From assembly GCA_964541455.1 (NCBI GenBank), contig CAZIPS010000003.1, positions 2,663 through 66,662 of the forward strand: a stretch of 64,000 nt of DNA, written 5' to 3'. The notes beneath the pieces were generated by a model. The model was not told the DNA's origin, searched no databases, and worked only from the letters and a program-made list of their open reading frames with translations. This document shows positions 3,451 through 63,833 of the stretch, piece after piece (the stretch's first letter is position 1; each line of letters starts with the position of its first letter). The DNA is from an uncultured Candidatus Saccharibacteria bacterium (lineage in GTDB: Bacteria > Patescibacteriota > Minisyncoccia > Phycocordibacterales > JAKFXT01). A program made the position numbers and the translations under genes.

Positions 3451-3523
3451 TACTTTTAACCTATTTTATGGCAGAATATAAAAAGTCAAATTTTGTTCCG
3501 GCCCTAAAAGGAGGGGTCACACA

Positions 3524-3958
3524 ATGGAATTGCAGCCAATAAACCAGTTTGCCTTTGCCCGAGCCGTGGCAGAGCTTTCTGGTGAAGGACCAGAGGTGGG
3601 GAGAAGCGGACTCTACACAACCTTCCCACAAGTCCCCGGGAAACCGGAGCTCCACTGCCTCACCACCGCCATGAAGTGGATTGGCGGACCGCGGCAGTCG
3701 GGCGAAGCCCAGCTCGTCGTCGTCGACAAGCTCCGCGAGCAGCCGGTTGCGGCGCTCATGTGGACCATGACTACATCAGGACCCACACGAGAGTTCGTCG
3801 TCGACCTCGGATTCGGAGTTTCCTCCGACCCGAAGTGGAACCTCTTCCTTGGAAAGCTCAAGGAAATCGCCGAGCAAATCGGCGAGCCGCCCGAACGTTT
3901 CCGGCAAGAAGTCGGCGAGATCCTGTCCATCATCCACATGCTCGGTGTGGCGGCCTAA
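3524..3958 (+). CDS. Hypothetical protein, GC-rich cassette A (144 aa, cytoplasmic, no recognisable domain)
   Basis: ORF of about 62% GC against a background near 42%. A strong SD (AAAGGAGGGG) lies 7 nt upstream of the ATG and the cassette has its own terminator. The antisense ORFs in this region are GC artefacts. Confidence 0.6.
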   Translation: MELQPINQFAFARAVAELSGEGPEVGRSGLYTTFPQVPGKPELHCLTTAMKWIGGPRQSGEAQLVVVDKLREQPVAALMWTMTTSGPTREFVVDLGFGVSSDPKWNLFLGKLKEIAEQIGEPPERFRQEVGEILSIIHMLGVAA

Positions 3959-3979
3959 CCGCCCCATCGAGCAAAACCC

Positions 3980-4006
3980 CGCCCGTCAAGGGCGGTTTTT
4001 TTATGT
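3980..4006 (+). terminator. Intrinsic terminator of cassette A
   Basis: CCGCCCGTCAAGGGCGG followed by TTTTTTT. Confidence 0.75.
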
Positions 4007-4081
4007 TACTTTTATTTTCGCCCTATTTAAGGTAAGAATAGTGAAGCTTATTTGTTCCTAGGCCCCACGAGGTGGCCATAC

Positions 4082-4519
4082 ATGGATCCCGCTGAACTTA
4101 CCCGAATCACAGTTCGTCTTTTCAATCGACTCGTCTTCAAGTATGAAGGGACCCTTCCCAAGAAAAGTAGTGGGGACGTTGTTTCAACCCTTGTTTTAAC
4201 TGGGGAGAACCTCACCCTTAGCATCCACCCCTGGCGGCGCACATCAAGACCAGAAAAAATGGTGTATTTCTCGATTTCCTCGACAAGATGCCGCGTCCCC
4301 GTACTTTCGATCTGGCTTGATGACGAGGCTACCACCCGTATTTCGGTCGTTTCCGGCCCAACTGCCCTTAAGGGGAAGGAGTTTTCATTCCTTCTTACCC
4401 TCCAAAGGGAGGCTCTCGAAGTCTTTGACGATCACCCGTTCCTCTTCCCCGAAAACGACTTTGGGAAGTGGATACACCTCTGTGGGCACACCACCCTCCT
4501 TCTGATGCGAGGGAATTAA
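4082..4519 (+). CDS. Hypothetical protein, GC-rich cassette B (about 146 aa from ATG 4082; the ORF track starts at an upstream TTG)
   Basis: About 50% GC, with SD GAGGTGG 6 nt upstream of ATG 4082 and its own terminator. No recognisable domain. Confidence 0.5.
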   Translation: MDPAELTRITVRLFNRLVFKYEGTLPKKSSGDVVSTLVLTGENLTLSIHPWRRTSRPEKMVYFSISSTRCRVPVLSIWLDDEATTRISVVSGPTALKGKEFSFLLTLQREALEVFDDHPFLFPENDFGKWIHLCGHTTLLLMRGN

Positions 4520-4540
4520 GGTGAACCTATTCACTTAGCA

Positions 4541-4566
4541 TCACTGCCACGGCGCCAGAAAGACGG
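4541..4566 (+). terminator. Intrinsic terminator of cassette B
   Basis: GGCGCC-AGAAAGAC-GGCGCC followed by GTTTTTT. Confidence 0.7.
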
Positions 4567-4726
4567 CGCCGTTTTTTATTACAATAACGTACTCATAAAC
4601 AACTACCTTAAATTTTGCTACAGTAAGGACATTATTTATTAAAAAGGTCTTTCTATATGTAGATTTCAAAATAAGCTAACAGTAAGTGCTTATTTTTAAG
4701 TCTGACTTAGGAAGATCGTAAAACAT

Positions 4727-6871: not shown

Positions 6872-6931
6872 GAACCTTTTCACAAATACTTCTTAAAAGG
6901 GGAGGGGGTGCGATGCTATACTGAATAAATC

Positions 6932-10329: not shown

Positions 10330-11343
10330 TTAAAAAGGATTGGCTGCACCGCGAATTTCAAAGTGTAGATGCACCCCAGTTGCCTTGCCTGTGCGTCCCA
10401 TTTCTCCAATAATCTGCCCTTGAGTAACTATTTCTCCAACCCCTACAAGGTTTTTACTCAAGTGACCATAAAGTGTTTGCGTCCCATTATCATGCTTAAC
10501 CACAATATAATTTCCATATCCAGCATTCCATCCCGACGTACGACTGATAATAACTACGCCTGAAGCTGAAGCCATGATGGGTGCCCCAAAATAACTTGCG
10601 AGATCCACTCCGTTGTATCCATGTAACCCTTGTGTTTTGACTCCTCCTAGAATAGGCCGAGCGTAATAATTCTCGATAAGTGGACCGCTTGCACTCCTCC
10701 TCCATGGGTTAGTTCCGCTTGATGTTCTTCCTACACCAGAAGATTGTGGTTGTGGCGCAATTTCACCATCAGGAACGATGATGGTATCCCCAACAGCAAG
10801 ATCACCTCCTATTTCGATATTGTTATATTGTGCAATTTCATCCGCATCAGCTTTATACTTTTTGGCGAGCGTTTTTAGAGTATCACCCTTAACTACTGTG
10901 TGACGCACCCCTGAAATAGGGAGGATGACGAGGGTGTCGCCTGGTTTTACCACCCCACCTTTAATATCGTTGGCCCAGGCTATAGTATTTTTTGAAACAT
11001 TGAACATCTTTGCAATTGAAGAAAGAGAATCTCCGGCGCGCACCACGTAGAGACTAATATGGCTACTTTCTCCGTCTTTTTCCTCCACTTCAAGCGCTGT
11101 TCCCGAAGGACCGTCCTCTGACAAAAGGGCTGTTCCTCCAACCACGGTAATATCCCCCCCACCCTTAGCTGGGTTAGGGTCTAGGTTTACTGCTGCCTGC
11201 AAAAGCGTCATGTTCTGGCTATTTACAGAGCGTTCTTCGGTACTTGTGCTCTTATTTTTTGCAAAAAGGTTAGTAAAAGCCGAAAAAACCCCCGCTTCTG
11301 CAGAAAAAGGCGCCAACAAAGAAATGAGGAGTGAAAAAAACAC
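10330..11343 (-). CDS. Secreted LysM-domain M23 family metallopeptidase (peptidoglycan endopeptidase)
   Basis: Signal peptide, two LysM-like segments (GDSLSSIAKMFNVS, GDTLKTLAKKYKADADEIAQYNN), and M23 motifs (HGYNGVDLA ... GRTGKATGVHLHFEI). Confidence 0.9.
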   Translation of the reverse strand: MFFSLLISLLAPFSAEAGVFSAFTNLFAKNKSTSTEERSVNSQNMTLLQAAVNLDPNPAKGGGDITVVGGTALLSEDGPSGTALEVEEKDGESSHISLYVVRAGDSLSSIAKMFNVSKNTIAWANDIKGGVVKPGDTLVILPISGVRHTVVKGDTLKTLAKKYKADADEIAQYNNIEIGGDLAVGDTIIVPDGEIAPQPQSSGVGRTSSGTNPWRRSASGPLIENYYARPILGGVKTQGLHGYNGVDLASYFGAPIMASASGVVIISRTSGWNAGYGNYIVVKHDNGTQTLYGHLSKNLVGVGEIVTQGQIIGEMGRTGKATGVHLHFEIRGAANPF

Positions 11344-11609
11344 CCCATTTCGTAGGAAAATAGTGAAAAACGTACTATGTGGCTCTTCCTGTGTAGACGT
11401 AGAAAGAGTGTGTGAAATGTCTTTTTTTATAAGCCGATGAATATTAGGGTCTCTCCTTACAGCAATATATGGCTCTAATAAGCCATAGCAACCTCTCCGT
11501 ATTCCTTCTTTATATAAACTATAGACCTCCTGCCACGTAAGTCAACCTTGACGAAATGGGGTTGTGGATAAATAAAATAAGGCCTACATAGTGCTATACT
11601 ATTACTGTT

Positions 11610-14600
11610 ATGTCTACAAATCCTCCTCCTGGTGATCCTGCGATTGAAAAAGGTGCCACCCTTTCGTCAAAAACCCTCGTCGAACAGGCGCTTTCCGTTC
11701 TTCAAGACAAGGAAGATCTCGAAATTAAGGATATCCTCGCTGAACTTAGCAAAAACAATACCCCCCTTGAAGAAGGCGAGGTGATTAAGGAACTCGAAGA
11801 GCTTGGGTATGATATTGAAATAGTCGACCCTCCAACTAAAACTAAGGCTTCAAACACTGAAATTCCTCCTACCCACCATACACCCTCACCAGTAAAAAAA
11901 ATTCCTTCACTTAAAGAACTAAATGCTAGGGTCAAGACGGTCGTTGATGAAAAGTATGAAGGGAAAAGACCTCCAGCACTAGAAAAGGATGTAGCGAGGA
12001 TAATGAGGGATATTTCAAACACTCTCAAGCTTATTGACGCACGTGAGGGAAAGAAAAAAACACCAGAAGACAAAGAAAAGCTCGATGATCTGTATCTTGC
12101 CTTTGAACGCCTTGTTGAGGATTTTGAAAAACATACTCCAAGCCTAGAGGAGCCAAAAAAAGAGCCGCACACAGAAAAAGACCCAGCGAAGACCGCTGCG
12201 CACCGTACCATCCCCACCCTTAAAGAACTCCGAGCTCGTGTACAGACTGTTGTTGATGAAAAGTATGGAGGGGAGAATCCTCCGGCCCTTGAGCAAGACA
12301 TCCGCGGCATAGTCAAAAATATTACTGACATTCTTGCGGAAGTCGAAAAGCGCAAAGGTAAAAGAAAAACGCGCGAAGAAAAAGAGGAGCTTGATAATCT
12401 GTATCTTGCTTTTGAACGCCTTGTTGAGGATTTTGAGAAACATACTCCGAACCTTGAAGGAGCGAAAACAGAAACTGGAGACACAACAGAGCCCGCAAAG
12501 AGAGGATGGAGTAGGGAAATGCAGCTACATACAGAACCAGCACATACCGAGGAAGAAATAGTGTTTTTGCGGAGTAAGGGATGGACTGATGATGATTTCA
12601 AACGACACAAAGAAGCTCACATAAGTGAGGAATTACTACGCGCTGAAAAAGCCCGTCTTGAGCGAGAAATTAAGCGTCTCGAAGAAAGGGACGCTCTTAC
12701 TCCCAGTGCTCTTTTTGAAGGTGAGAAATGGCTTTTGAAATACAACCTTAGACCAAATCTAGCCGAAATTAACAAAACCTTAGCCAAAATAGAGGCTAAA
12801 AAAAGTCCTGCCATACCAAGCGCTGTTGCTACACCCTCGCCAGTTGATACCTCACCTAACAGTACCCCCTCAAAAACACCCGAGACTTCAAATGATCTAT
12901 TGGAGATTGCTGAACTAGCTAAACTCCACCAAAAAAGACTTTCACTTCAACAACTTGTTGAAAGTACCATGGACCTCGACGCTCGAACTCTTTTTGAAGA
13001 AGACTTACAAAAGGTTGAGGAAGAAATACAAGAGCGCATGAAAACTGCTCCACAAGGAGGAGCGTATGAAGCGAGTGCCCGTATTGAACATGAACTTATT
13101 TCGACACCTTCCTCCCCACACGCAACTAATCCCGACCTTCTTACGCTTGAAGGACAGAAACAGGCGCGCATCGATGCCCTCCTTAATCGTCTTACCGAAA
13201 ACCCCGATGACGTAGCTGTCCTTACCGAAGTTGCTATAGGCCTTGCCAAAGAAACCAATGACCCTGATACTATCGCCGAAAACAATTTAGTAGTCACCAT
13301 GGCACAAGATGAAACAGGCCCCTCCGCACTTAGTCACCAACAAGAGATGTTAAGGGAGGAGATAGGTATACTTCAAGCAAAGCTTACTGCATTAGGATTT
13401 ATTGCCCATAAACACCCTGTAAACATTGCCACCCCCCCTTCGCCAGAAACTGAAACACAAGGAGAAACTGCCGCACTTGAAAAAGCGGCTACTGCGGGAA
13501 TCGAGCACATAGAGCGTATGCTCGATGAAAATATGGCCAATGCAAAAAAGAATTGGACTACCTACGGCAAAGCATGGGCCTTAAATGCTTTTACCGAAAT
13601 TGGCGAGCAGTATAGTAAAGCCCCCTTGAAATTAAAACTTGCCCTTTCTGCCACCCTTATTGGGGCAGGATTATTTGGTGGGGGAGCAGTGGCTGGAGCT
13701 ATCGGCAGTATTGCTCTTGCACAAAGAGCATTTGGTTTTGCAGGCACTTATGTTGGTGTAGAGGCTGTTCTTGCGCGTGTCCGTGAACAAAAATTTAGAA
13801 AAGGAAAAGAGTTAGGACTTTTTACGAGTCACACAAAAGCGACCGCTTCAGTACTCGCTGCGCTTCTCGGTTCCGCTGCGCCATACGCTTTTAGTTATGC
13901 TATGGAAGCAAGTGAAAGACAGATCGGATCACTCATCTCGAGCCCCGAAGGACAGAAAATTTTAGCTGCCTTTTTTAGCAATGAATATGTGCAGACCATC
14001 AAAGGTGCCATTCAAGACAATCTCCCTTCTCCAAAAGGAGTACCGGTTGAACGGGTAACTACAGCGTCAACTACAACTGCTGCCGAACCATCAGATGCTA
14101 CACATCAAATATCACCTACAACAAATGTCGAACATGCAACTTCTACCATTAAACAATTTACTGATGCCATCGATCGACCAGGGGACTCTGTGTGGCGCTC
14201 GATGAAAGAAATTATCCGCAACAATGCAGAAGATTTCGGTTGGAAAGAAAACAACATCACAAGCAAAGAATTGTGGCTTGATCGTCGTGTTGCCGAAATC
14301 ATGCAAAACAATCCTGACATTGCGCAGCAAAACTTAGTCCACGAAGGGGGCCAAGTACATCTTGAAATTGTTGATGGAAATATAAACGCCTACTACGAAC
14401 CCGCCAAAGGTTTTGAAAATGCCCCACAAAGTCTTCCAGAAAAAATTATGCCAACACCTGTAACCACTGAGTACGCACCACAAGAAACCTCTCTCTCCAC
14501 AACACCTACATCCCCAGTTGAACAGACTGATGTGCCGATCATTATCCATCCAACTGATATACCGGACGAAACTCCTCCAGCTTCGGAAGATGGGCAAATC

Positions 14601-15041
14601 TTTGAAGGGGCAGGGAATCGTACTTCAACCTCTATTGAAACAAAAGTTGCTGACACTCCGAAAACAACAGTGGAGCAAGTACTTTCAAAGGCAGAACTTT
14701 TACATGTTCAAACAGAAGTGGTTACCCGCATCGATAGTGAGTTTGCAAAACCATCTTTCTTTGGGTTTGGTGGAGTTCCAGGAGTTAATACCACTGAATG
14801 GTCAGACATCCAAAAAATTCCCGCAAGTGAAATTCTCGCTGCGCCAAGTTTTGAAAAATTAAATATTCGATTTAAAGAACTTGTTCCAGACCTCACCCCA
14901 TATGCATATGAAAAAGCGCACCACCTTCTTCTTGAAGCAAGTAAACAAAGTGGTACCATTCCAGTAAGTTCAGAAGATTCTTATACATACCTTACCCGAT
15001 CAGTTAAAGAACAATTTATTAAAAGTAAATACATCGCATAA
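11610..15041 (+). CDS. Giant hypothetical protein (1143 aa) with an internal tandem repeat, coiled-coil regions and a Gly-rich TM segment
   Basis: Continuous ORF. Two consecutive ~97-aa repeat units (IPSLKELNARVKTVVDEKYEGKRPPALEKD... and IPTLKELRARVQTVVDEKYGGENPPALEQD...), then a Gly/Ala-rich hydrophobic stretch (LIGAGLFGGGAVAGAIGSIALA). No recognisable catalytic domain. Confidence 0.6.
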   Translation: MSTNPPPGDPAIEKGATLSSKTLVEQALSVLQDKEDLEIKDILAELSKNNTPLEEGEVIKELEELGYDIEIVDPPTKTKASNTEIPPTHHTPSPVKKIPSLKELNARVKTVVDEKYEGKRPPALEKDVARIMRDISNTLKLIDAREGKKKTPEDKEKLDDLYLAFERLVEDFEKHTPSLEEPKKEPHTEKDPAKTAAHRTIPTLKELRARVQTVVDEKYGGENPPALEQDIRGIVKNITDILAEVEKRKGKRKTREEKEELDNLYLAFERLVEDFEKHTPNLEGAKTETGDTTEPAKRGWSREMQLHTEPAHTEEEIVFLRSKGWTDDDFKRHKEAHISEELLRAEKARLEREIKRLEERDALTPSALFEGEKWLLKYNLRPNLAEINKTLAKIEAKKSPAIPSAVATPSPVDTSPNSTPSKTPETSNDLLEIAELAKLHQKRLSLQQLVESTMDLDARTLFEEDLQKVEEEIQERMKTAPQGGAYEASARIEHELISTPSSPHATNPDLLTLEGQKQARIDALLNRLTENPDDVAVLTEVAIGLAKETNDPDTIAENNLVVTMAQDETGPSALSHQQEMLREEIGILQAKLTALGFIAHKHPVNIATPPSPETETQGETAALEKAATAGIEHIERMLDENMANAKKNWTTYGKAWALNAFTEIGEQYSKAPLKLKLALSATLIGAGLFGGGAVAGAIGSIALAQRAFGFAGTYVGVEAVLARVREQKFRKGKELGLFTSHTKATASVLAALLGSAAPYAFSYAMEASERQIGSLISSPEGQKILAAFFSNEYVQTIKGAIQDNLPSPKGVPVERVTTASTTTAAEPSDATHQISPTTNVEHATSTIKQFTDAIDRPGDSVWRSMKEIIRNNAEDFGWKENNITSKELWLDRRVAEIMQNNPDIAQQNLVHEGGQVHLEIVDGNINAYYEPAKGFENAPQSLPEKIMPTPVTTEYAPQETSLSTTPTSPVEQTDVPIIIHPTDIPDETPPASEDGQIFEGAGNRTSTSIETKVADTPKTTVEQVLSKAELLHVQTEVVTRIDSEFAKPSFFGFGGVPGVNTTEWSDIQKIPASEILAAPSFEKLNIRFKELVPDLTPYAYEKAHHLLLEASKQSGTIPVSSEDSYTYLTRSVKEQFIKSKYIA
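11898..12480 (+). repeat. In-frame tandem duplication (two copies of about 290-310 bp) within the giant ORF
   Basis: Near-identical nucleotide stretches, for example CTTGC(C/T)TTTGAACGCCTTGTTGAGGATTTTGA(A/G)AAACATACTCC at about 12091 and 12401. The protein repeat units are about 60% identical. Confidence 0.8.
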
Positions 15042-15043
15042 GT

Positions 15044-15349
15044 ATGAATGAACAAGACATCGCAGCACTCGCCGCAAAAGATCTCGGAATTGAAACATTA
15101 AGCCCAGACATGCAAAAAGATGTTTTAGCGCGCCTCGGAGAAGCATCACTTAAAGGAGCGCTCCTTGAAATATTTGAAAAGCTCCCGCCAAGCGCTGAAG
15201 AAGAATTCAAGAAAATTTCTGAAAGCGGTGATCTTGCAAAGACACAATATTTTTTGAAACAACAGATTCCTGACTACGAGTCCATTATGAAACGGCACAT
15301 CACAAAAACCGTTGAAGAATTCAAGCGAGTAAAAGCTGGACTTTCCTAA
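15044..15349 (+). CDS. Small hypothetical protein (101 aa) immediately downstream of the giant ORF, probably co-transcribed
   Basis: Its ATG sits 3 nt after the giant ORF stop. Predicted alpha-helical, no recognisable domain. Confidence 0.45.
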   Translation: MNEQDIAALAAKDLGIETLSPDMQKDVLARLGEASLKGALLEIFEKLPPSAEEEFKKISESGDLAKTQYFLKQQIPDYESIMKRHITKTVEEFKRVKAGLS

Positions 15350-17485: not shown

Positions 17486-17514
17486 TTGACTTTTTAAGTC
17501 TTTTGCGGTTTAAT
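17486..17514 (+). promoter_or_regulatory. Near-consensus sigma70 promoter of cassette C (TTGACT-17-TTTAAT)
   Basis: -35 TTGACT at 17486-17491, 17-nt spacer, -10 TTTAAT at 17509-17514. SD AGGAGG lies 6 nt before ATG 17548. Confidence 0.6.
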
Positions 17515-17547
17515 TTACGTAAACTAACCACACCTAGGAGGTGTGCC

Positions 17548-18138
17548 ATGAAGTTCTTCAGAATCACACTGTTCGCGGCTTTCGGCCTCGGCCTGACGTA
17601 TACTTCGTCGTTCGGGCAACAGCTCGCAGCTCTGGCCCCCACAAGCGAAGCGGTGAAGTGCCAGGCCAAACTCTCCCTCGAGGAAACCCCCGAAACAAAG
17701 GTGGCGCTCGAGGAAAACGAGTACCCAGAAACCGCGACCCCCGTTCTCGCATACGCCCTGCGGCAAATCGCTTGCCTTGAAGGCGAGTCCGAGGTCCAGA
17801 TCTCCCTCAAGATCCTCTCTATCGACTGGGACTGGACACCGGGAGGAGCGTTTGTTTCGGTCTTCACCGGCATCTTCGGTGGACCAAGCAACTCACTGGG
17901 GTCCATCAAGGGGAAGGCGGCAGTTGAAATAACTGTTCGCACCAAGGGAAAGGTGGTCACGGCACAAGGCGCAGCAGAGGAGAAAACCCTCTACAAGCCC
18001 GAACCGAAAATGATCATCGACGATCGCCCAGCACTCCCCATCGGCGGCGGATGGTCACGGCCGAACAACAAGGTTGGGGGAATGCTCCTCAATCAAGCAA
18101 TCGGCCAGGCCCTCAAGAAGGCCTTCGAGCAACTGTAG
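17548..18138 (+). CDS. Hypothetical secreted protein, GC-rich cassette C (196 aa, N-terminal signal peptide)
   Basis: About 58% GC. Signal peptide MKFFRITLFAAFGLGLTYTSSFGQQ, strong SD and its own terminator. The fold family is not recognisable. The ORF track starts at an upstream GTG at 17458. Confidence 0.6.
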   Translation: MKFFRITLFAAFGLGLTYTSSFGQQLAALAPTSEAVKCQAKLSLEETPETKVALEENEYPETATPVLAYALRQIACLEGESEVQISLKILSIDWDWTPGGAFVSVFTGIFGGPSNSLGSIKGKAAVEITVRTKGKVVTAQGAAEEKTLYKPEPKMIIDDRPALPIGGGWSRPNNKVGGMLLNQAIGQALKKAFEQL

Positions 18139-18152
18139 AGGCGATGCCACTA

Positions 18153-18180
18153 CAGCCCCCGGGTTCGCCCGGGGGTTTTA
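18153..18180 (+). terminator. Intrinsic terminator of cassette C
   Basis: CCCCCGGG-TTCG-CCCGGGGG followed by TTTT. Confidence 0.8.
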
Positions 18181-19063: not shown

Positions 19064-20128
19064 ATGGAAAGCTTTGCAAAATTTTTGCCGAGCCGGCAGT
19101 TTGGGGTTGTTATTGCCTCGATCTTTTTAGCCTGCGCATTAGTAGGTAGCGTGTTCTATCTCAAAAAAAATAAGGAACAGAAAAGTGACATTGCACTTTT
19201 AAATGGGCCGAGTATCGAAGCGGTAACTGATGCTACTAAAAATCTAAGTGATGATGTTGCTGATATCGATACTGACCATGATGGCCTTAAGGATTGGGAA
19301 GAAGTCCTATGGGAAACCGACCCTAAAAACCCCGACACCGATCATGATGGCACCCCTGATGGGGAAGAAGTAAGACTTGGGAGAAATCCTCTAGTAAAGG
19401 GACCTAACGACAGTCTCAAAGAGGTGAGTAAAAATATAAGTACTGCATCATCCGCCCCGATTGTACTCACCCCCACTGATATCGTGGCACGTGATTTTTT
19501 CTCAAAATATCTTGAGGCTAAGCAAACAGGAAAAGATATTGATGCCAAGACCCAAGAGGAAATCATTGCTTCTGTTATTTCACGCCAAGACCTCGTGCAG
19601 AGCGCCAAAGCATATAGCAAAGAACAGCTAACCATAAGTACTAAAAATGATGAGGCGTCACTAAGGGCATATGGCAACGCTATGGGGCTTATTTTTAAAA
19701 ACACTGCCACTTGGAAAGAAAGTGAGATAGACATCATGCAAGAAGCTCTTAACAAAAATGATGAAAAAAGACTTGAGGCACTGGATACTAACATTAATGG
19801 ATACCAATCTATTCTTAATCAAAGCCTAAAAGTGGTTGTACCAAGCAAAGCAGTTGATGTCCATCTCCGCTATATAAACGCTTATAGCAAAATCGTCACC
19901 GCACTTACTGCTATGAAAAATACATTTAAAGACCCCGTAAGTGCCCTTATCCTTCTTGGTAAATACCCAGATGCTATTACCGAACTCCACCAGTCTTTTA
20001 TCGACGCGAGAAGTTTTTTTACCCGAAACAATATTACCTTTGACCTAAAAACTGAAACAGGAATTTTCTTTGCTAATTTTGCTGATGCAGTCGACATCAA
20101 GACAAAGGAGAATGCTGGAACCCAATAA
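19064..20128 (+). CDS. Membrane-anchored protein with thrombospondin-type-3-like Ca-binding repeats (DTDHDG...DPKNPDTDHDGTPDGEE)
   Basis: 354 aa with an N-terminal TM helix and two DxDxDG calcium-binding-like repeats. The remainder is unrecognisable. First gene of the T4SS-like block. Confidence 0.5.
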   Translation: MESFAKFLPSRQFGVVIASIFLACALVGSVFYLKKNKEQKSDIALLNGPSIEAVTDATKNLSDDVADIDTDHDGLKDWEEVLWETDPKNPDTDHDGTPDGEEVRLGRNPLVKGPNDSLKEVSKNISTASSAPIVLTPTDIVARDFFSKYLEAKQTGKDIDAKTQEEIIASVISRQDLVQSAKAYSKEQLTISTKNDEASLRAYGNAMGLIFKNTATWKESEIDIMQEALNKNDEKRLEALDTNINGYQSILNQSLKVVVPSKAVDVHLRYINAYSKIVTALTAMKNTFKDPVSALILLGKYPDAITELHQSFIDARSFFTRNNITFDLKTETGIFFANFADAVDIKTKENAGTQ

Positions 20129-20133
20129 TCTAT

Positions 20134-21747
20134 ATGCTAGAACTTCTTTTTAAAATTAAAAAATCTTTTTACGCAAAAATTCTTGTATCTTTTCTTATTA
20201 TCGCCTTTTTCGCTCCCATGGCACTCCCACCAAAAGCAGATGCAGGGGGAATGGCAGTCTTCGATTCAATTGGTGCAGCTCTTAAAACCGCCGGTAATGC
20301 AATTTTGACTATTATAAGCACTATTTCAAATGCGATTATTGGTGCCGGTATCCAAGCTCTTGTTACTGCCAAATACATCTTAGGCCCCCTTGCCACAACA
20401 ATTGCGAAAATGATCCTGCGGGGTATTACGGCAAGTATTATCGCTTGGATAAGTAATGGGTTCCAAGGAAGCCCCTCCTTTATCCAAGATCCCAAACGAT
20501 TCTTCACTAATGTAGCTGATCAGGCAATCGGTGCAGTTCTACTATCAAATGAAGCAACTAAATGGATGTGTACCCCATTTGCAATCAATATAAAACGAGC
20601 CCTTATCTACAATCGCTCTTTCTATCAACGTTCTCAGTGTAGCCTCACGCAAGTCGTAAATAACTTCAAAGGCTTTGCAAGTGGACTTAATAACCAATTC
20701 GGCAGTCTTGGTGGTTGGACTGCGTGGAACACTATGACATACGAGCCACAAAATAATCCCTACGGAGCCTATGCCCTCTTTAATATGCAGGTTGATGTAC
20801 AAGTAACCGGCGCCATCAATACCCAAGCCCGCTTACTCGACTGGGGTAAAGGTTTTCTTTCCTGGAAAGACCCAACATGTGTCGAAAATGCTAAAAGAAA
20901 TTCCGACCTTGAGGGCTATAAAACAGGCGATGAAATCGTTCCCCTTGAAGAAAGTGAGGGCAATACCATTAGTCCAAACACTGACCCAAATACCTGCCCG
21001 ATTCTTACTCCAGGTGATGTTATTGCAAATCAAATAAACAAGACTATCGGAAGCGATGTTGATCAGCTTGTAGGTGCACAAGAGATCAATCAGATTATTA
21101 GTGCACTCCTTTACCAACTTGCAGTTAAAGCACTTGGTGGCTCTGGCCTTCTTGGACTTGGCGCTTCATACTCCGATCCTTACGGCACAAATGGAAGCTA
21201 TGCTCAACAACTTCTCGCAAATGATCAACAGGTATTCAATCAAACTCGCAGTGACTTAAACCAACAAATATACAACCGCATCACCACCGAAAACAACTAC
21301 TCTGCAACAAAAAACCAAACACTTTCTCTTATAGATCTTTCTGCTAATAAAGCGTTTTCAGTCCTTAATTGCTACTTTGCAACTTCTTCTACTCCACTTG
21401 GTATCAACAACAGCATGCGTGCTACTGATATAGCAGGAGCTTCAAGTTCACTTGCCTTTATAAACGGCTTCAAGCGTTCTATACAACGTGACGTCGACAT
21501 ATCAGATATAAACATCAGTAACCTCCAACGCCTTGTTGATGCCTCAAACGCCTTAGACTACAGCCACAGAGATACTCTGCAACAAATCTCATCACAATTC
21601 TCACAACTCATCACGCAAATCCACTCTGACGGCGATGTTATAAACGCCCAGTTTGAACGTGACCAGACTATACCTGACGCCATGAAAGCTCCTGATGCCG
21701 ACAATGACACTCGCCTTAATCGCTGTTACACCGAACCTATTAACTAG
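20134..21747 (+). CDS. Hypothetical exported protein (537 aa) in the T4SS-like cluster
   Basis: N-terminal hydrophobic anchor or signal, then a Cys-containing Gly/Ala-rich region. No recognisable domain. Confidence 0.45.
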   Translation: MLELLFKIKKSFYAKILVSFLIIAFFAPMALPPKADAGGMAVFDSIGAALKTAGNAILTIISTISNAIIGAGIQALVTAKYILGPLATTIAKMILRGITASIIAWISNGFQGSPSFIQDPKRFFTNVADQAIGAVLLSNEATKWMCTPFAINIKRALIYNRSFYQRSQCSLTQVVNNFKGFASGLNNQFGSLGGWTAWNTMTYEPQNNPYGAYALFNMQVDVQVTGAINTQARLLDWGKGFLSWKDPTCVENAKRNSDLEGYKTGDEIVPLEESEGNTISPNTDPNTCPILTPGDVIANQINKTIGSDVDQLVGAQEINQIISALLYQLAVKALGGSGLLGLGASYSDPYGTNGSYAQQLLANDQQVFNQTRSDLNQQIYNRITTENNYSATKNQTLSLIDLSANKAFSVLNCYFATSSTPLGINNSMRATDIAGASSSLAFINGFKRSIQRDVDISDINISNLQRLVDASNALDYSHRDTLQQISSQFSQLITQIHSDGDVINAQFERDQTIPDAMKAPDADNDTRLNRCYTEPIN

Positions 21748-21749
21748 CT

Positions 21750-24218: not shown

Positions 24219-24233
24219 TATATAATAGAGAAT

Positions 24234-25397: not shown

Positions 25398-25529
25398 AGC
25401 GTAAGCTTTGTGTTGTTTATACCACCCACCCTTAATCAACACGACATATCCTCTTATCTGCGCGACAAAGAGCGCAATCTCTTATATTATTAGAGATACC
25501 AAGCGCATTGTCGTTTCAGTATTTTTTAT

Positions 25530-26051
25530 ATGCAATTCCAAGTTCCTCAATTTATTGAAGTAGAAGACAAGCTTTTTGGTCCTCTTACCCTTAAACAATT
25601 CATTTATCTTGCTGGGGGAATAGGTGTTTCGGCGATCTTCTACCTTGTTATTCCTTACCACTTTATTGCCATAGTTCTTGCGGTTCCTTTCGTTGTTTTT
25701 GCGATTGCCTTAGCTTTCTACCGCATTAACAGTAAACCATTTGTTGAGGTGCTTGAGGCAGCACTTTCCTACTACTTTAAAAACAAGCTTTATATATGGA
25801 AGAAATCCGACAAGAAAATTGAGGATCGTCCAAAAGAAGAAGTATCTGAACCCTCTCTCGATACACTTTTTGCCCCACGCCTCTCTGAAAGCAAGCTCAA
25901 AGATCTCGCGTGGAGCCTTGATGTTACTGATAAAGTAATAAACAAAGAGGTTCAAAGGGGAGGGGGGTCCCGCATTACGTATAACGAAGACGAGCGCGAG
26001 AAAGTTGAGTTCCAGAAAAACTACGAAATTGGAGCTAAGGGGCACCTATAG
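25530..26051 (+). CDS. PrgI/VirB3-like small membrane protein
   Basis: 173 aa with two adjacent N-terminal TM helices (LAGGIGVSAIFYLVIPYHFIAIVLAVPFVVFAIALAFY) directly upstream of the VirB4 ATPase, matching typical PrgI-family topology and placement. Confidence 0.5.
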   Translation: MQFQVPQFIEVEDKLFGPLTLKQFIYLAGGIGVSAIFYLVIPYHFIAIVLAVPFVVFAIALAFYRINSKPFVEVLEAALSYYFKNKLYIWKKSDKKIEDRPKEEVSEPSLDTLFAPRLSESKLKDLAWSLDVTDKVINKEVQRGGGSRITYNEDEREKVEFQKNYEIGAKGHL

Positions 26052-26056
26052 AACAT

Positions 26057-26692: not shown

Positions 26693-26694
26693 TT

Positions 26695-36602: not shown

Positions 36603-36604
36603 AC

Positions 36605-45386: not shown

Positions 45387-45415
45387 TTGACTTTTAGCAA
45401 TTTTTCGTGTATAAT
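45387..45415 (+). promoter_or_regulatory. Perfect-consensus sigma70 promoter of cassette D (TTGACT-17-TATAAT)
   Basis: -35 TTGACT at 45387-45392, 17-nt spacer, -10 TATAAT at 45410-45415. SD AGGAGAAGG lies upstream of ATG 45470. Confidence 0.7.
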
Positions 45416-45469
45416 ATCAACCATCAAGCTTGGGAAGGGTCCCAGGCTCGCACATTACAGGAGAAGGTC

Positions 45470-45955
45470 ATGTATACTCGCTTTGCAGTTCCGGTGGTTC
45501 TCGTGCTCGTCGCCCTCTTCGGGGGTTGTGCGGGCATCAACTCGATAGACCCGCAAGTCTATCGTTACGGGGGCGGCTTTCAGTCCGATTTCGTCGTCAC
45601 AGCTCCGCCTTGTAAGCAATTGCAGGCGGAAGGTAAGTCGTGGCAGGCAATTCAATGTCAAAGTGGCGTCAACGCGCAGGCGCGCGACAATGCGACGACG
45701 GTTTTCCTAGAGGAGGCCCGCCAGGCAGAGCTCATCTACTGGCAGGCCTATAACTCGGTCCGTGTTGGGCCGGAAGGGTTCGGTGTCAGTCAGTTCAGCT
45801 GCCGCCCGTTTCGTATCTCCCTCGTTAAGTTCAGTCGTTGCAACGACGGCCTGCGCGAGGGGGCGCAAAACGCCATCCGCAATGCCTACTGGCAGAGCGA
45901 GCGCGACATGCAAGCCGCGCGCGAGGTGGGGAGAACGCACACTAATAGCCGATGA
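45470..45955 (+). CDS. Hypothetical lipoprotein, GC-rich cassette D (161 aa; signal peptide with lipobox-like LFGGC)
   Basis: About 59% GC with its own promoter, SD and terminator. N-terminal MYTRFAVPVVLVLVALFGGCAG and four further Cys residues. No recognisable domain. The ORF track starts at 45407. Confidence 0.6.
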   Translation: MYTRFAVPVVLVLVALFGGCAGINSIDPQVYRYGGGFQSDFVVTAPPCKQLQAEGKSWQAIQCQSGVNAQARDNATTVFLEEARQAELIYWQAYNSVRVGPEGFGVSQFSCRPFRISLVKFSRCNDGLREGAQNAIRNAYWQSERDMQAAREVGRTHTNSR

Positions 45956-45983
45956 GGCTTGGACCTTCTCCTTCCAGTTTCAA

Positions 45984-46008
45984 GGCGTCCTTTCGGGGAT
46001 GCCTTTTT
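45984..46008 (+). terminator. Intrinsic terminator of cassette D
   Basis: GGCGTCC-TTTCGG-GGATGCC (one G-U pair) followed by TTTTT. Confidence 0.6.
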
Positions 46009-46048
46009 CATTTCCCCTTACATTTTCGAGAGGTTGGTGCATGGTAGA

Positions 46049-46486
46049 ATGGGGGCAATGAAACGTCTTGTTAAAAGTTTGGAGGAAATGGACCTTTTTG
46101 CCGAAGAAGTGTTGGCAAGCCTTCCTTTAGAGAAGGAGGCGACACTTCTTACCCTTAAAGGAGAACTTGGGGCAGGGAAAACGGCTTTTACTAAAGCTAT
46201 AGCGAAACATTTAGGGGTGGTTGAGGTCGTAAATAGCCCTACGTTCGTGGTCATGAAATCTTATGATCTTGTAGGGCGCGCGTATAAAAAACTCATTCAC
46301 ATTGATGCGTATCGTATTGAAGACATATCTGAACTTAAGCCTCTTAAGTTCGAAACATTACTAAAAGACCCGTCGAACCTCATAGTGCTTGAGTGGCCAG
46401 AACGCATAAGTGAAGCGTTGCCTAAAGATGCGCGGACTATCAAGTTTACGTTTGTGGATGAGACGACGCGTGAAGTGGAATATTAA
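46049..46486 (+). CDS. tsaE: tRNA threonylcarbamoyladenosine biosynthesis ATPase TsaE (YjeE)
   Basis: P-loop LKGELGAGKTAFTKAIAKHLGV and downstream VNSPTFVVMKSY, the TsaE signature. The start is taken at an internal Met. The ORF track begins at 45959 and overlaps the cassette D terminator. Confidence 0.85.
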   Translation: MGAMKRLVKSLEEMDLFAEEVLASLPLEKEATLLTLKGELGAGKTAFTKAIAKHLGVVEVVNSPTFVVMKSYDLVGRAYKKLIHIDAYRIEDISELKPLKFETLLKDPSNLIVLEWPERISEALPKDARTIKFTFVDETTREVEY

Positions 46487-50906: not shown

Positions 50907-51070
50907 GGGGTACAGGGATCTTTCGCTGTACGAATAGTATAGCTTCCCCATTTTTTGTAACAGGAATTTGTCGTCACGGATAATTTTGTTTTCGTCAAAA
51001 CAAAATTTCCTTGACCACGACTCGCGGTTTTGCGTACTCGCAAAACATCGCTCCGTCTCGGACTTGTAGT

Positions 51071-51098
51071 AAAAAACAGTGCGCAGGCACTGTTTTTT
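51071..51098. terminator. Palindromic terminator hairpin downstream of tRNA-Lys; an identical element recurs at 63283-63320
   Basis: AAAAAACAGTGC-GCAG-GCACTGTTTTTT. The reverse-complement-identical copy follows tRNA-Arg(TCT). Confidence 0.75.
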
Positions 51099-51104
51099 CT
51101 CAAG

Positions 51105-56245: not shown

Positions 56246-56273
56246 AGTGAAAGTATAGCAGTAGTTAGATTTC

Positions 56274-63176: not shown

Positions 63177-63206
63177 TGGTAGCCTAACAACGTTAAGGAT
63201 ATATTC

Positions 63207-63281
63207 CTCCCCGTAGTTCAATGGATAGAACAGGAGACTTCTAAGCTTCTGATCGTGGTTCGATTCCACGCGGGGGGACCA
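63207..63281 (+). tRNA. tRNA-Arg (anticodon UCU), CCA encoded
   Basis: Acceptor CUCCCCG/CGGGGGG, D-arm GUUC-AAUGGAUA-GAAC, anticodon loop CUUCUAA, T-loop GGUUCGAUUCC, 3' ACCA. Confidence 0.8.
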
Positions 63282-63282
63282 T

Positions 63283-63320
63283 ACAAGAAAAAACAGTGCC
63301 TGCGCACTGTTTTTTCTTGT
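63283..63320. terminator. Palindromic terminator hairpin after tRNA-Arg(UCU); same element as 51071-51098
   Basis: ACAAGAAAAAACAGTGC-CTGC-GCACTGTTTTTTCTTGT. Confidence 0.75.
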
Positions 63321-63546
63321 ATGGTCCGGCCGCAGCTATATTTTGCTAGCGAGCAAAATTGTGCGAGGCGGGGTCGCGAAAAAAGCGAGTGGCGACGAGC
63401 TTTTATTCGTGACACAGAGAAGTAAAGAAACAAAGCGTCCACGCGGAACATTGCAAGCGACGGCGCGCAATGTATCTGTGACACAGAGTGGGGGGGTTCA
63501 CAGAGATAGTAAAAAACCGCCCGAAGGCGGTCGGTGAGTGGAGGGG

Positions 63547-63747
63547 TTATTCTCGAAATTCCCTCCACCAGATGATGGTCCAGGCGAGGCTTCCTATGAC
63601 GAAAGCCCCGGCGCTTATTGAAAGGAACCATACAAGTTCAGCTCCTTTGGGGGCAAGGATGCTGCCTGCCAAAAGCCCCAGAAAAAGGGAAAGCACAATG
63701 GCCGAGACGTACGGGCCCCACGCTTCCCCACGAATTATGTGTCTCAT
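63547..63747 (-). CDS. Small two-TM membrane protein, GC-rich cassette E (66 aa from ATG; the ORF track extends to an upstream TTG at 63801)
   Basis: MRHIIRGEAWGPYVSAIVLSLFLGLLAGSILAPKGAELVWFLSISAGAFVIGSLAWTIIWWREFRE. SD GGAGGA 5 nt upstream, sigma70-like promoter and a terminator CCGCC-TTCG-GGCGG-TTTTTT after the stop. Confidence 0.55.
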   Translation of the reverse strand: MRHIIRGEAWGPYVSAIVLSLFLGLLAGSILAPKGAELVWFLSISAGAFVIGSLAWTIIWWREFRE

Positions 63748-63773
63748 ACAGGTCCTCCATATTGTCTTCGGGC

Positions 63774-63801
63774 AGCATACTCTTTCTATCTGTCTAGTCA
63801 A
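63774..63801 (-). promoter_or_regulatory. Sigma70-like promoter of cassette E (TTGACT-16-TATGCT on the minus strand)
   Basis: Reverse complement of 63796-63801 is TTGACT and of 63774-63779 is TATGCT. The ORF track uses this TTG as an alternative start, but the ATG at 63747 with SD fits better. Confidence 0.5.
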
Positions 63802-63833
63802 ACAAAAGCCAAGGAAATTGCTATAATTCCCTT

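Follow-up and report, generated by a model that had tools for sequence, protein, structure and literature searches.

Five small genes in the 64,000-nucleotide stretch of DNA analyzed here (the whole stretch is called the window) are real genes whose base composition, type of promoter and ribosome-binding signal set them apart from their neighbors. The host genome is a reduced one of the Paceibacteria type, within the CPR bacteria; CPR genomes are small, and their lineage-specific genes mostly lack annotation. On our best reading, these five genes, which together with their signals are called cassettes A to E, are inherited and selected residents and not recent, engineered or mobile-cassette insertions.

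Base composition of the cassettes

The window has a GC content of 43.0%, and its 48 host genes have a GC of 0.425 ± 0.031 and a GC3 of 0.370 ± 0.044 (maximum GC3, 0.448). Recomputed GC and GC3 agree with the initial annotation, in which the five genes had been described as GC-rich compositional outliers. Measured against the 48 host genes, A (GC 0.600, GC3 0.710, z = 7.8), C (GC 0.580, GC3 0.706, z = 7.7) and D (GC 0.595, GC3 0.691, z = 7.3) deviate most, and B (GC 0.511, GC3 0.568, z = 4.5) and E (GC 0.532, GC3 0.567, z = 4.5) are milder outliers, the excess over the genome being 9 to 17 GC points. The range of ∼55 to 62% GC originally given for the small open reading frames (ORFs) holds for A, C and D and is too high for B and E because of their lower measured GC. 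Codon usage in the cassettes shows an overall move to G/C-ending codons (codon fractions of 0.83 for AAG, 0.67 for CTC and 0.80 for ATC), like that of an organism of ∼60% GC, and the GC blocks stop sharply at the transcript boundaries, with no GC enrichment in the adjoining genes. RNA genes were ruled out as the source of the GC peaks, with Rfam and ARAGORN returning only five tRNAs, none of them in a cassette. A sixth gene of the same design, absent from the initial annotation, was found at the left end of the window; it has only a slight GC excess (GC3 0.46) and no Pfam match.

Table 1. Predicted features of the five cassettes and the sixth gene (window coordinates)
Feature	Position	Strand	Basis or remark
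Cassette A	3449-4002	+	sequence, composition, terminator scan, dN/dS
A putative promoter TTTACT-17-CAGAAT	3449-3477	+	sequence
A SD AAGGAGG	3508-3514	+	9 nt before ATG
A CDS, 144 aa, no export signal seen	3524-3958	+	
A terminator hairpin, then T-run	3979-3995	+	terminator scan
Cassette B	4011-4578	+	sequence, composition, dN/dS
B putative promoter TTTATT-17-AAGAAT	4011-4039	+	sequence
B SD GAGGTGG	4069-4075	+	6 nt before start
B CDS, 145 aa	4082-4519	+	
B terminator, then T-run	4549-4572	+	
Cassette C	17486-18179	+	sequence, composition, dN/dS, remote orthologue
C promoter TTGACT-17-TTTAAT	17486-17514	+	
C SD AGGAGGTG	17536-17543	+	4 nt before start
C 7-bp hairpin enclosing SD	17529-17545	+	
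C CDS, 196 aa, N-terminal signal-peptide-like segment	17548-18138	+	
C terminator	18156-18179	+	
Cassette D	45387-46009	+	sequence, promoter and terminator scan, composition, orthologue
D promoter TTGACT-17-TATAAT	45387-45415	+	11/12 consensus; best in its 20 kb
D SD AGGAG	45459-45463	+	6 nt before start
D CDS, 161 aa, lipobox LFGGC	45470-45955	+	
D terminator, then T-run	45982-46005	+	
Cassette E	63509-63801	-	sequence, translation, scan, composition
E promoter TTGACT-16-TATGCT	63801-63774	-	
E SD GGAGG	63758-63754	-	6 nt before start
E CDS, 66 aa, two hydrophobic segments	63747-63547	-	
E terminator, then T-run	63532-63515	-	
Sixth gene, same design	284-709	+	SD-plus-ORF scan
Sixth gene SD AGGAG	284-288	+	
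Sixth gene CDS, GTG start at 295, 130 aa	295-687	+	
Sixth gene terminator	688-709	+	

Expression signals of cassettes and host genes

A Shine-Dalgarno (SD) sequence lies 4 to 11 nt upstream in 5/5 cassettes and in 0/48 host genes (Fisher p = 3.5e-7). The strong SD that had been reported for each cassette was read in its place in all five, as was the intrinsic terminator said to close each unit, a hairpin followed by a T-run. Strong terminators are also present downstream of the host genes NYN and comM, and terminators are therefore not cassette specific. The near-consensus sigma70 promoters described for C, D and E were recovered as given, and the promoter regions of A and B are alike over 31 nt (z = 3.6).

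The further statement that promoters are recognizable for few host genes did not hold, since host genes show extended −10 boxes near the start codon. These boxes (TGnTAnnnT) end 4 to 12 nt before the ATG; −10-like hexamers, many with an upstream TG, number 20 in the 12 positions before the ATG (peak at 6 to 9) versus 12 in the next 33. Host genes have, by sequence, the close −10 box without an SD that is the mark of leaderless genes, and host operons are predicted to start leaderless, with an extended −10 box adjoining the ATG. The contrast between cassettes and host genes is larger than initially reported.

The cassettes are predicted to have leaders of ∼20 to 50 nt. Their transcripts fold at −0.38 to −0.42 kcal/mol/nt, compared to −0.20 to −0.32 kcal/mol/nt for host segments. 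The folding z-scores of the coding sequences (CDS) only are −3.7 for A, −2.0 for C and −2.95 for D, with host segments ranging from −3.5 to +1.6; these scores overlap the host range and are modestly suggestive of selected mRNA structure for A and D.

Predicted products

The N terminus of C, MKFFRITLFAAFGLGLTYTSSFG-QQ, resembles a signal peptide by eye, and its orthologue in L103, a family-level relative, begins likewise; C is probably secreted. The signal peptides of bacterial lipoproteins end in a lipobox with an invariant Cys. The N terminus of D reads MYTRFAVPVVLVLVALFGG-C and has this pattern, and LFGGC is kept in 4/4 homologues; D is probably a lipoprotein. Its AF2 model (mean pLDDT 61) has two long helices and gave no structural match in the PDB at E ≤ 0.001. 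For A, the model (pLDDT 40) was unusable. E is a minus-strand gene (its coordinates contain a stop when read on the plus strand), is likewise annotated in strain L194, as a gene of 66 aa, and probably encodes a small membrane protein. As C, D and E are predicted to be a secreted protein, a lipoprotein and a membrane protein, respectively, some of the cassettes may act at the cell envelope.

Homologues and donors

None of the five products matched a family (0/5), in agreement with the earlier remark that no family could be named for them. For A, C and D, searches of 5.8 billion clusters returned relatives from the same genus only, with neither a homologue nor a donor beyond it; the only relative of A is P0026 (85% identical). 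For B, a full phmmer search of 1.84 billion representatives recovered, besides the cluster of B itself, only a weak match (E 1e-4) to an Ig-like repeat, and no donor from another genus. Phage, plasmid and viral collections, the PDB, and the PADLOC (defense) and PHROGs (phage) families gave no match to any of the five, so that the high-GC donor originally proposed was not found in any of the clusters or collections searched. The searches with A, C and D were word seeded and missed the L103 orthologue of C, which is 24% identical (the protein may be absent from the collection); distant relatives may therefore exist unseen. The five proteins showed no similarity to each other (A-B and C-D were compared directly, A-B also by a shuffle test), and paralogy among them was rejected. 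When metagenomes were scanned with ComM, the best match was 71% identical and the genus of the window was not recovered. Cluster members were also used to look for the sibling-species sites of C and E and led to a near-identical strain only.

Cassette sites in related genomes

Cassettes A and B lie in the order rpsO-NYN-A-B-pnp; the site had been annotated as an rpsO/pnp gap, which is correct on the pnp side, the other neighbor being an NYN-domain gene. Empty sites, which the initial annotation had suggested looking for in sibling genomes, were found for A/B (NYN/pnp) and C (uvrD/ksgA): in relatives with conserved rpsO-NYN-pnp...uvrD-ksgA order, most of these gaps are empty (30 to 270 bp). At NYN/pnp, the sibling species has x163 and L102 has x176, both SD led, GC elevated and unrelated to A/B. 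Homology of A or B to the same-site genes of L182 and L102 was rejected, as BLAST, hhalign and shuffle comparisons were insignificant (best z 2.6 to 3.1). Since the NYN/pnp contents differ in the sibling species, at least one change occurred there after speciation. In other Paceibacteria, the ORFs that fill the uvrD/ksgA gap are Y1-transposase-like and AT-rich, and they were set aside as unrelated to C.

A remote orthologue of C occupies the same site in L103 (L103:14788-15423) and retains the TTGACT promoter, SD and terminator. Its GC3 is only 0.48; high GC is therefore not obligatory, and the amelioration picture is mixed. The orthologue of D in the sibling species (L092:6083-6571), at the same pilB/tsaE site, has 73% amino acid identity, a GC3 of 0.75 and the same promoter, SD and terminator (dN/dS 0.16, dS ∼1.1); synonymous sites of host genes are saturated in this species (pS 0.72 to 0.78). 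The acquisitions had been called recent-looking, with same-site orthologues in related genomes named as evidence to the contrary, and recency fails for C and D because such orthologues exist. In a two-state amelioration model, the GC3 of D requires an ancestral GC3 of at least 0.9 to 1.0. Polarizing the D substitutions with L092 as the outgroup gave 18 S>W versus 7 W>S changes at third positions, a count that we rejected as unreliable because L092 is saturated and is itself 75% G/C at third positions.

A shared mobile cassette type, as had been considered, is contradicted by the lack of significant flanking repeats, shared ends and internal repeats. The best flanking direct repeats are 8 to 9 nt long and recur in shuffled flanks at a frequency of 0.07 to 0.44, no end motif is common to the five cassettes, and no repeated copies were found within the window. 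Neither att/attC sites or target duplications nor promoterless arrays beside an integrase, by which site-specific cassettes are recognized, were found; each cassette has its own promoter-like site and terminator, and the units are dispersed over 60 kb. A tyrosine recombinase gene (positions 712 to 1629, assigned by orthology) is conserved throughout the relatives, also where the cassette sites are empty.

Strain variation and selection

Between strains, dN/dS is 0.08 to 0.32 for all five cassettes (A, 0.26 [versus L098]; B, 0.10; C, 0.32; D, 0.08; E, 0.10), values that point to five coding genes under purifying selection. At least eight contigs, assembled independently in ENA, Logan and JGI data sets, contain identical genes and junctions, which argues against engineered insertions or an assembly artifact, and every strain contig recovered carries all five cassettes. 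Alleles of A, B and D differ with dS values of 0.31 to 0.52 against a strain background of 0.02 to 0.05, and C and E show no excess allele divergence. In D, a patch at positions 45599 to 45899 is 82 to 84% identical between strains, with flanks at 99 to 100%; toward its 5' end, D has 99% identity between strains and is equally GC-rich, and the alleles differ mainly at synonymous sites. The patch was considered as the target of a diversity-generating retroelement and rejected, as the window holds no second copy of a cassette segment and the change is mostly synonymous.

Origin of the cassettes

Our preferred explanation, to which we give a probability of roughly 45%, is that the cassettes are single-gene acquisitions of different ages that have been domesticated, are vertically inherited as residents and have their GC content actively maintained. 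The five ORFs and the gene at 295 to 687 would be expressed-looking, single-gene accessory units that form a second gene class in a CPR genome. The core class would be AT-rich, without an SD and leaderless from an extended −10 box, and the second class leadered, GC-rich and family-less, with a TTGACT −35/−10 promoter, a strong SD and a hairpin terminator. Most likely, its members are foreign genes that arrived as self-contained units, each in its own period, and settled in intergenic sites that tolerate insertion: C would have been gained before the split from the L103 lineage and D before the two sibling species split, and the NYN/pnp contents would have changed after the sibling split, either by A/B here or by x163 there. 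After entry, vertical inheritance and purifying selection would have been accompanied by strain-to-strain swaps through homologous recombination. The GC richness would then be not a fading trace of origin but held at a GC3 of ∼0.7, possibly because the stable, structured and SD-initiated cassette mRNAs work in another regime than leaderless mRNAs. As the searches gave neither a donor nor an outside homologue for the five genes, we infer a foreign origin from their design and the empty sites only. Lawrence and Ochman reportedly set out, in 1997, an amelioration model for horizontally acquired genes; such genes should drift to host composition, and the lack of drift in D counts against the preferred explanation.

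The constancy of D fits an endogenous class of selected genes as well as it fits acquisition. Such a class would consist of small genes that evolve fast and whose mRNAs, being GC-rich, structured and SD-initiated, are under selection for an expression regime of their own (for example, long mRNA life or translation where leaderless initiation is poor); empty sites would result from members being gained and lost inside the gene pool of the clade. It would account for the GC3 of ∼0.7 that D has held across saturated divergence, for the near-equal GC (0.58 to 0.60) and GC3 (0.69 to 0.71) of the sequence-unrelated A, C and D, for the more stable folding of cassette transcripts and for a promoter/SD/terminator design that is kept in the orthologues of C and D and whose combination recurs across distant Paceibacteria loci. 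However, it leaves unexplained the source of new, unrelated members, such as A/B versus x163 at one site, and fits poorly with the L103 orthologue of C and with SD-led accessory genes of host-like GC, so that we regard it as possible but rather unlikely. Less probable again is that the five genes were acquired recently and independently from a high-GC donor and have had too little time to ameliorate. The codon usage, the foreign-type signals, the sites that are empty in most relatives and the different contents of the A/B site in the sibling species would all be expected of such acquisitions, but D is orthologous and equally GC-rich across saturated synonymous divergence, C has its same-site orthologue in a family-level relative, no donor appeared in any collection, and the strain contigs recovered all carry the five cassettes.

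GC-biased gene conversion at recombination hot spots, in which mismatch repair in exchanged polymorphic cassettes raises GC, could be invoked for the allele divergence of A, B and D (∼10× the strain background) and the sharp patch in D, in a genome that encodes the transformation-related ComM, PilB and PilM. We consider this very improbable: in C and E, high GC goes with no excess divergence between alleles, the nearly invariant 5' part of D is as GC-rich as the rest, the GC blocks end at transcript boundaries without enrichment of flanking genes, and the reported effects of such conversion in bacteria, which amount to a few percent of GC3, are too small compared with the +0.33 GC3 seen here. 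One shared mobile cassette type (integron-like or site-specific), or engineered or chimeric insertion, is scarcely credible. The uniform promoter-RBS-ORF-terminator layout and the nearby tyrosine recombinase gene are what such an origin would lead one to expect, but repeats, a shared end motif and repeated copies are lacking in the window, each unit has a promoter of its own, the units are scattered and form no array, relatives with empty sites have kept the recombinase, and many independent metagenome assemblies show identical junctions.

Relation to known systems

The cassettes share with atypical genes and genomic islets that they are short outliers without annotation, have their own codon usage, lie between conserved genes and are absent from most relatives. 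Of the features of horizontally acquired islets, deviant composition and codon usage was found for the cassettes, and an empty site in relatives for A/B and C; homologues in a plausible donor lineage were not found, nor was drift of D to host composition (GC3 0.69 and 0.75 in the two species). Atypical genes are more often GC-poorer than the host (PMC6028130, GeneMarkS-2), whereas the cassettes are GC-richer, have no donor or mobility signature that we found, include at least one unameliorated member (D) and differ from host genes in promoter type and translation-initiation mode. In group C genomes, frequent in Actinobacteria and Deinococcus-Thermus, genes that come first in an operon have a Pribnow box ∼6 to 10 nt from their start codon, and leadered, SD-led genes coexist (PMC6028130). 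The host genes show the same close Pribnow box, with leadered SD-led genes alongside, but here the two modes are split by gene class, the core having no SD (0/48) and the SD-led genes being orphan accessory genes, mostly GC-rich. Integron gene cassettes are likewise small, single-ORF, often family-less intergenic additions; unlike them, the present units have no attC-like shared end and no integrase-side array, each have a promoter and lie scattered across 60 kb.

Bacterial ORFans, reportedly treated by Daubin and Ochman in 2004, are typically AT-richer than their genome. The cassettes resemble them in being short, lineage restricted, fast evolving and under purifying selection and differ in being GC-richer than their genome by the margin given above. 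In aquifer Patescibacteria, genomic islands and single transferred genes are mostly exchanged among Patescibacteria (PMC12455944), and exchange inside the clade agrees with the turnover of cassettes in the present data; the parts of that report considered here do not describe single-gene units that are GC-rich and SD led, or the persistence of such units.

Recurrence in Paceibacteria and implications

In 132 Paceibacteria loci, the SD frequency of ordinary ORFs equals the background of control motifs (∼10%), and an SD precedes 17/60 ORFs whose GC3 is >0.2 above the locus median. Eight of 10 such GC-rich ORFs have no Pfam family. Paceibacteria may have two "dialects," an AT-rich, SD-free, leaderless core and a clade-wide, continually renewed orphan set that is GC-rich, leadered, SD-dependent and closed by terminators, a generalization that we put forward as a conjecture and consider doubtful. 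If true, initiation mode and base composition would do more than record a foreign origin and would jointly identify small proteins of the envelope or of interactions as one functional regulon, and GC would be maintained because it defines a separate expression regime of stable, structured mRNAs translated by the 30S/SD pathway. Our literature search found no paper describing a leaderless core with SD-led orphans in CPR bacteria.

An SD, a leader and high GC against an SD-free, leaderless background would provide a sequence-readable marker of an accessory gene class, and as many such genes look exported, they are candidates for envelope or host-interaction functions. An atypical composition that outlasts saturated divergence cautions against equating GC deviation with recent transfer, and the window offers a test bed for the forces that hold GC locally, be it mRNA selection or biased conversion. 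Gene finders with a single start-site model per genome will miscall starts in one of the two classes. The sibling species also has SD-led accessory genes with host-like GC, and SD and GC are therefore not strictly coupled.

Composition and reality of the five genes

The five cassettes, small GC-rich orphan genes termed A to E, proved to be atypical in composition, as the initial annotation had proposed, when GC and GC3 were computed against 48 well-defined host genes (ordinary genes of the window; GC, 0.425 ± 0.031; GC3, 0.370 ± 0.044, with a maximum of 0.448), giving GC3 z-scores of 4.5 to 7.8 in a window of 43.0% GC. In A, C, and D, the order GC3 > GC1 > GC2 has the pattern of true coding sequence from a GC-rich background; in B and E, this ordering is only weak. 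For E, the plus-strand reading contains a stop. Codon usage in the cassettes is also shifted relative to that of the host (AAG, 0.83 versus 0.29; CTC, 0.67 versus 0.22; ATC, 0.80 versus 0.28). RNA genes are not the source of the GC peaks, since Rfam and ARAGORN detected five tRNAs only, none of them at the cassettes.

An identical A protein with the same neighbors was found on at least eight contigs, taken from ENA and Logan assemblies that are independent of one another, which rules out the assembly artifact or engineered insertion that had been suspected; B, C, and D are also found in NCBI, ENA, Logan, or JGI records. Comparison with a near-identical strain (loci L098, L192, L198, and L194) gave dN/dS ratios of 0.26 (A), 0.10 (B), 0.32 (C), 0.08 (D), and 0.10 (E); against a sibling species, the ratio for D was 0.16. 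These low values in the annotated frame indicate that all five genes are under purifying selection.

Locations of the cassettes and of other features (window positions unless a comparison locus, L-number, is named)
Feature	Location	Strand	Details
A	3524-3958	+	GC 0.600, GC3 0.710, GC3 z 7.8
B	4082-4519	+	GC 0.511, GC3 0.568, GC3 z 4.5
C	17548-18138	+	GC 0.580, GC3 0.706, GC3 z 7.7
D	45470-45955	+	GC 0.595, GC3 0.691, GC3 z 7.3
E	63547-63747	-	GC 0.532, GC3 0.567, GC3 z 4.5
Sixth gene of the same design	295-687		AGGAG SD, GTG start, terminator 688-709; GC3 only 0.46
Host extended -10 boxes (examples)	6910-6931, 11588-11609, 46036-46057, 56246-56270		Upstream of first-in-operon genes
PrgI-like protein	25530-26051
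VirB4/TraG-like ATPase	26695-28515
GC-rich SD-led gene in Paceibacteria	L025:2933-3208		GC3 0.82, locus 37.5% GC
Further GC-rich examples	L026:312-1136, L046:976-1260, L062:1791-2018, L120, L133, L144, L085
AT-rich uvrD-ksgA ORF	L019, L023, L027, L029, L034, L035, L060, L118, L120, L135, L137, L141, L166

Expression signals of cassettes and host genes

Every Shine-Dalgarno (SD) site and terminator, and each of the three TTGACT promoters, was found where the initial annotation had placed it; the A/B site, described there as lying between rpsO and pnp, is actually flanked by an NYN-domain gene and pnp. A GGAGG, AGGAG, or GAGGT motif 4 to 11 nt upstream of the start is present in all five cassettes versus none of the 48 host genes (Fisher P = 3.5e-7), operon-internal host genes being likewise without an SD. 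Most first-in-operon host genes instead carry an extended -10 box (TGCTATACT, TGGTAGAAT, TGTTACACT, and similar; TGnTAnnnT) that lacks a -35 element and ends 4 to 12 nt before the ATG, with 20 matches in the 12 positions before the ATG versus 12 in the next 33 positions. A -10 box close to the start codon is the leaderless-transcription signature of GeneMarkS-2 "group C" genomes (PMC6028130), which the host genes share. Together with the missing -35 and SD, it implies a host transcriptome that would be largely leaderless.

C, D, and E have a -35 TTGACT plus a -10, the cassette leaders are ∼20 to 50 nt long with a strong SD, and each cassette is monocistronic and closed by a hairpin terminator, although strong terminators were also seen behind the host genes NYN and comM. 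The cassettes contrast with host genes more strongly than the initial annotation had stated, and they do so in four independent ways: base composition with codon usage, promoter, leader with SD, and terminator.

The SD of C (AGGAGGTG) falls within the loop and the 3′ arm of a hairpin with 7 perfectly matched base pairs (CACACCT-AGG-AGGTGTG; 17529-17545) placed 3 nt before the start codon. This arrangement could serve to control translation or to stabilize the 5′ end. Few host genes combine a long leader with a promoter of the -35 type; one that does is a LysM/M23 peptidase gene (10330 to 11211 or 11343), with a TTGACT-16-TATAGT promoter (10/12 matches; 11518-11545, minus strand) 175 to 300 nt upstream; Rfam found no riboswitch in this leader at the gathering score.

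Homologs and predicted products

Pfam, NCBIfam, PADLOC, and PHROGs returned no match for any of the five cassettes, in agreement with the earlier statement that none could be named, and no cassette match was found in IMG/VR, INPHARED phages, PLSDB plasmids, or the PDB. A word-seeded search of 5.8 billion clusters yielded relatives from the same genus only: for A, its own cluster and P0026 (85% identity); for C, P0009 (97%); and for D, P0012 (92%), P0027 (72%), and one fragment. Because this method missed a 24%-identical ortholog of C in the more distant relative L103 (a protein that may not be among the clusters searched), the result means that A, C, and D have no homolog closer than ∼35 to 40% identity. 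For B, an exhaustive phmmer search against 1.84 billion representatives gave, apart from the cluster of B itself, a single weak match to an Ig-like repeat (E = 1e-4). B may be an Ig-like beta-sandwich.

Judged from their sequences, C looks secreted, D is a predicted lipoprotein, and E is a predicted two-helix membrane peptide; no export signal was seen in A or B. The AF2 model of D (mean pLDDT, 61) consists of two long helices without a fold match in the PDB, and that of A has a pLDDT of 40.

Conservation and age of the insertions

ComM-anchored loci identify the host as a Patescibacteria/Paceibacteria-type organism. Among the species representatives of the genome collection, the closest has 65% identity in ComM; the closest metagenome contigs have 71% (L102) and 68% (L103). 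The order rpsO-NYN-pnp-x-dksA-comM-lysM-uvrD-ksgA is kept across ∼160 loci, in most of which the NYN-pnp and uvrD-ksgA gaps measure 30 to 270 bp, versus 1,322 and 739 bp in the window. The expected empty sites thus exist, and with respect to the ancestral gene order, A, B, and C have been inserted. In other lineages, any contents of these gaps are AT rich, such as Y1-transposase-like ORFs. Many Zambryskibacteria-like loci have an AT-rich uvrD-ksgA ORF of 185 to 234 amino acids starting with M..YH[VI]YNRGVD, as Y1 transposases of the REP-associated or IS200-like type typically do. The intergenic site of C therefore takes insertions repeatedly.

The initial annotation regarded all five cassettes as recent looking. 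This does not hold for C and D. In a sibling species (L092 to L097; ∼75% nucleotide identity to the window, 85% amino acid identity in PolA), D also lies between pilB and tsaE, with 73% amino acid identity, a GC of 0.60, a GC3 of 0.75, and the TTGACT-17-TATAAT promoter, AAGGAG SD, and terminator retained. Synonymous sites of host genes are saturated at this distance (pS, 0.72 to 0.78), and the dS of D is ∼1.1. Even with this lower distance, a two-state amelioration model run towards the host GC3 of 0.38 required an ancestral GC3 of at least 0.9 to 1.0 to finish at the 0.69 to 0.75 of D, so its GC richness is stationary and not a decaying remnant. Between uvrD and ksgA, and on the same strand, L103 carries a gene of 211 amino acids that shares 24% identity with C across 173 residues (pairwise E = 2e-9; phmmer E = 4.5e-9), with a signal peptide, TTGACT promoter, GGAG SD, terminator, and GC3 of 0.48; C therefore predates the genus.

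Turnover within the genus is what the A/B site displays. The sibling species (L182 and L188) has one different gene between NYN and pnp (163 amino acids; GC3, 0.65; true start at L182:11091 behind an AAGGAGG SD), and L102 has a 176-amino-acid gene after NYN, behind AGGAGGAGG (GC3, 0.59). No relationship was detectable between these two genes or between either of them and A or B. The site has had its contents replaced within a genus, each time by a gene built in the same way. A further GC-rich, SD-led gene of the sibling species, 109 amino acids long (L182:6918-7247), has no counterpart in the window.

In a survey of 132 Paceibacteria loci (2,409 ORFs), ordinary ORFs had an SD at ∼10% of candidate starts, no excess over control motifs (7 to 10%), whereas 17 of 60 ORFs with a GC3 >0.2 above the locus median had one (controls, 0 to 14%). 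The convincing GC-rich genes are nearly all SD led, several start with signal peptides or lipoboxes, and of 10 that were tested, 8 belong to no Pfam family. Some accessory genes are SD led at a host-like GC (e.g., L092:538-1812 and the radical-SAM gene L182:4386-5282). One 65-amino-acid SD-led ORF (L138:1494-1691; GC, 0.62, in a 36% GC Paceibacteria locus) resembles by eye the KGG-repeat stress-induced proteins of ordinary bacteria and could represent a case in which the outside family is identifiable.

Divergent alleles and mobility

Against a background dS of 0.02 to 0.05 to the near-identical strain, A (0.31), B (0.35), and D (0.52) are divergent, and C (0.04) and E (0.07) are at background. 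The divergence of D is restricted to 45599-45899 (82 to 84% identity; flanks, 99 to 100%) and is mostly synonymous, and no template copy of this patch exists elsewhere in the window, which points to import of old alleles by homologous recombination and disfavors targeted hypermutation.

A shared mobile cassette type, as previously suggested, is rejected: the five have no common end motif, the window holds no repeated cassette copies, and a nearby tyrosine recombinase is also kept in relatives with empty sites. Direct repeats flanking the cassettes were no better than chance. The sole resemblance among the five promoter regions is that of A and B over 31 nt (z = 3.6).

Origin and maintenance

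With artifact or engineering, a shared mobile cassette, and (for C and D only) recent acquisition rejected by the data, the cassettes emerge as long-lived, selected, vertically inherited, and recombining genes that retain a composition and expression signals different from those of the core genome. Two readings share this ground. We favor, at a probability of roughly 45%, acquisition with later maintenance, in which self-contained foreign genes would have been acquired at different times and then domesticated. The alternative that the cassettes are an endogenous gene class seems to us rather unlikely; acquisition is preferred to it because the sites are empty in most relatives, because unrelated genes of the same design replace each other at one site, and because accessory genes of varied GC are marked by the SD-led design.

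As to why the GC stays high, we infer rather than observe the cause. GC-biased conversion, which we consider highly improbable, would fit the divergent alleles of A, B, and D; it is at odds with C and E, with the 5′ part of D that is conserved, and with the abrupt GC limits at the transcript level. Per nucleotide, the folds of cassette mRNAs are ∼50% more stable than those of host segments, with folding z-scores of -4.4 to -5.3 for full transcripts; those for the coding sequences only (-2.0 to -3.7) overlap the host range.

Atypical, horizontally acquired genes as such are already known. ORFans are usually AT-richer. Atypical genes in general are usually AT-richer as well (PMC6028130), and the cassettes are shifted in the opposite direction. 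Also unusual are the coupling of this shift to a switched promoter and translation-initiation design, versus an SD-free leaderless CPR core, and the fact that the composition has persisted across a saturated divergence. The parts of the literature covered by our search contain no description of SD-less or leaderless organization in CPR. A study of transfer in Patescibacteria (PMC12455944) reports islands and transfers of single genes, for the most part between members of the phylum; the passages searched do not describe a gene class of the cassette type.

Other features of the window

The composition of the genome is heterogeneous both ways, AT rich and GC rich. dnaA (33975-35315), dnaN (35508-36602), and an 84-amino-acid ORF (region 33975-36859) are markedly AT rich (GC, 0.34, 0.31, and 0.28; GC3 as low as 0.19, versus 43% GC for the genome), with rnpA, yidC, and jag immediately upstream on the minus strand; a cumulative GC skew minimum near 32.4 kb identifies this as the replication origin region.

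Behind tRNA-Arg(TCT) lies a near-perfect 44-nt palindrome (CCATACAAGAAAAAACAGTGC...GCACTGTTTTTTCTTGTATGG; 63282-63325), 28 to 32 nt of which recur beside tRNA-Lys (51070-51101) and in the sibling species (L092:11471-11502). The palindrome probably serves as a bidirectional terminator that is used repeatedly behind tRNA genes. Between this tRNA-Arg and the E terminator is a GC-rich noncoding stretch (63330-63510) containing a direct repeat (GTGACACAGAG, at ∼63411 and 63479). Its block 63400-63499 is only 28% identical to the otherwise 99%-identical strain L194.

A 1,143-amino-acid protein without any Pfam domain and a following DUF5663 gene (11610-15349) form a lineage-specific pair of host-like GC between lysM and uvrD, present in L102 and L103 (25 to 27% and 43% identity) and absent in L012 and most Paceibacteria loci. 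Downstream of ksgA, a TSP3-repeat protein, three large family-less proteins, a PrgI-like protein, and a VirB4/TraG-like ATPase make up a type IV secretion-like cluster (19064-28515).
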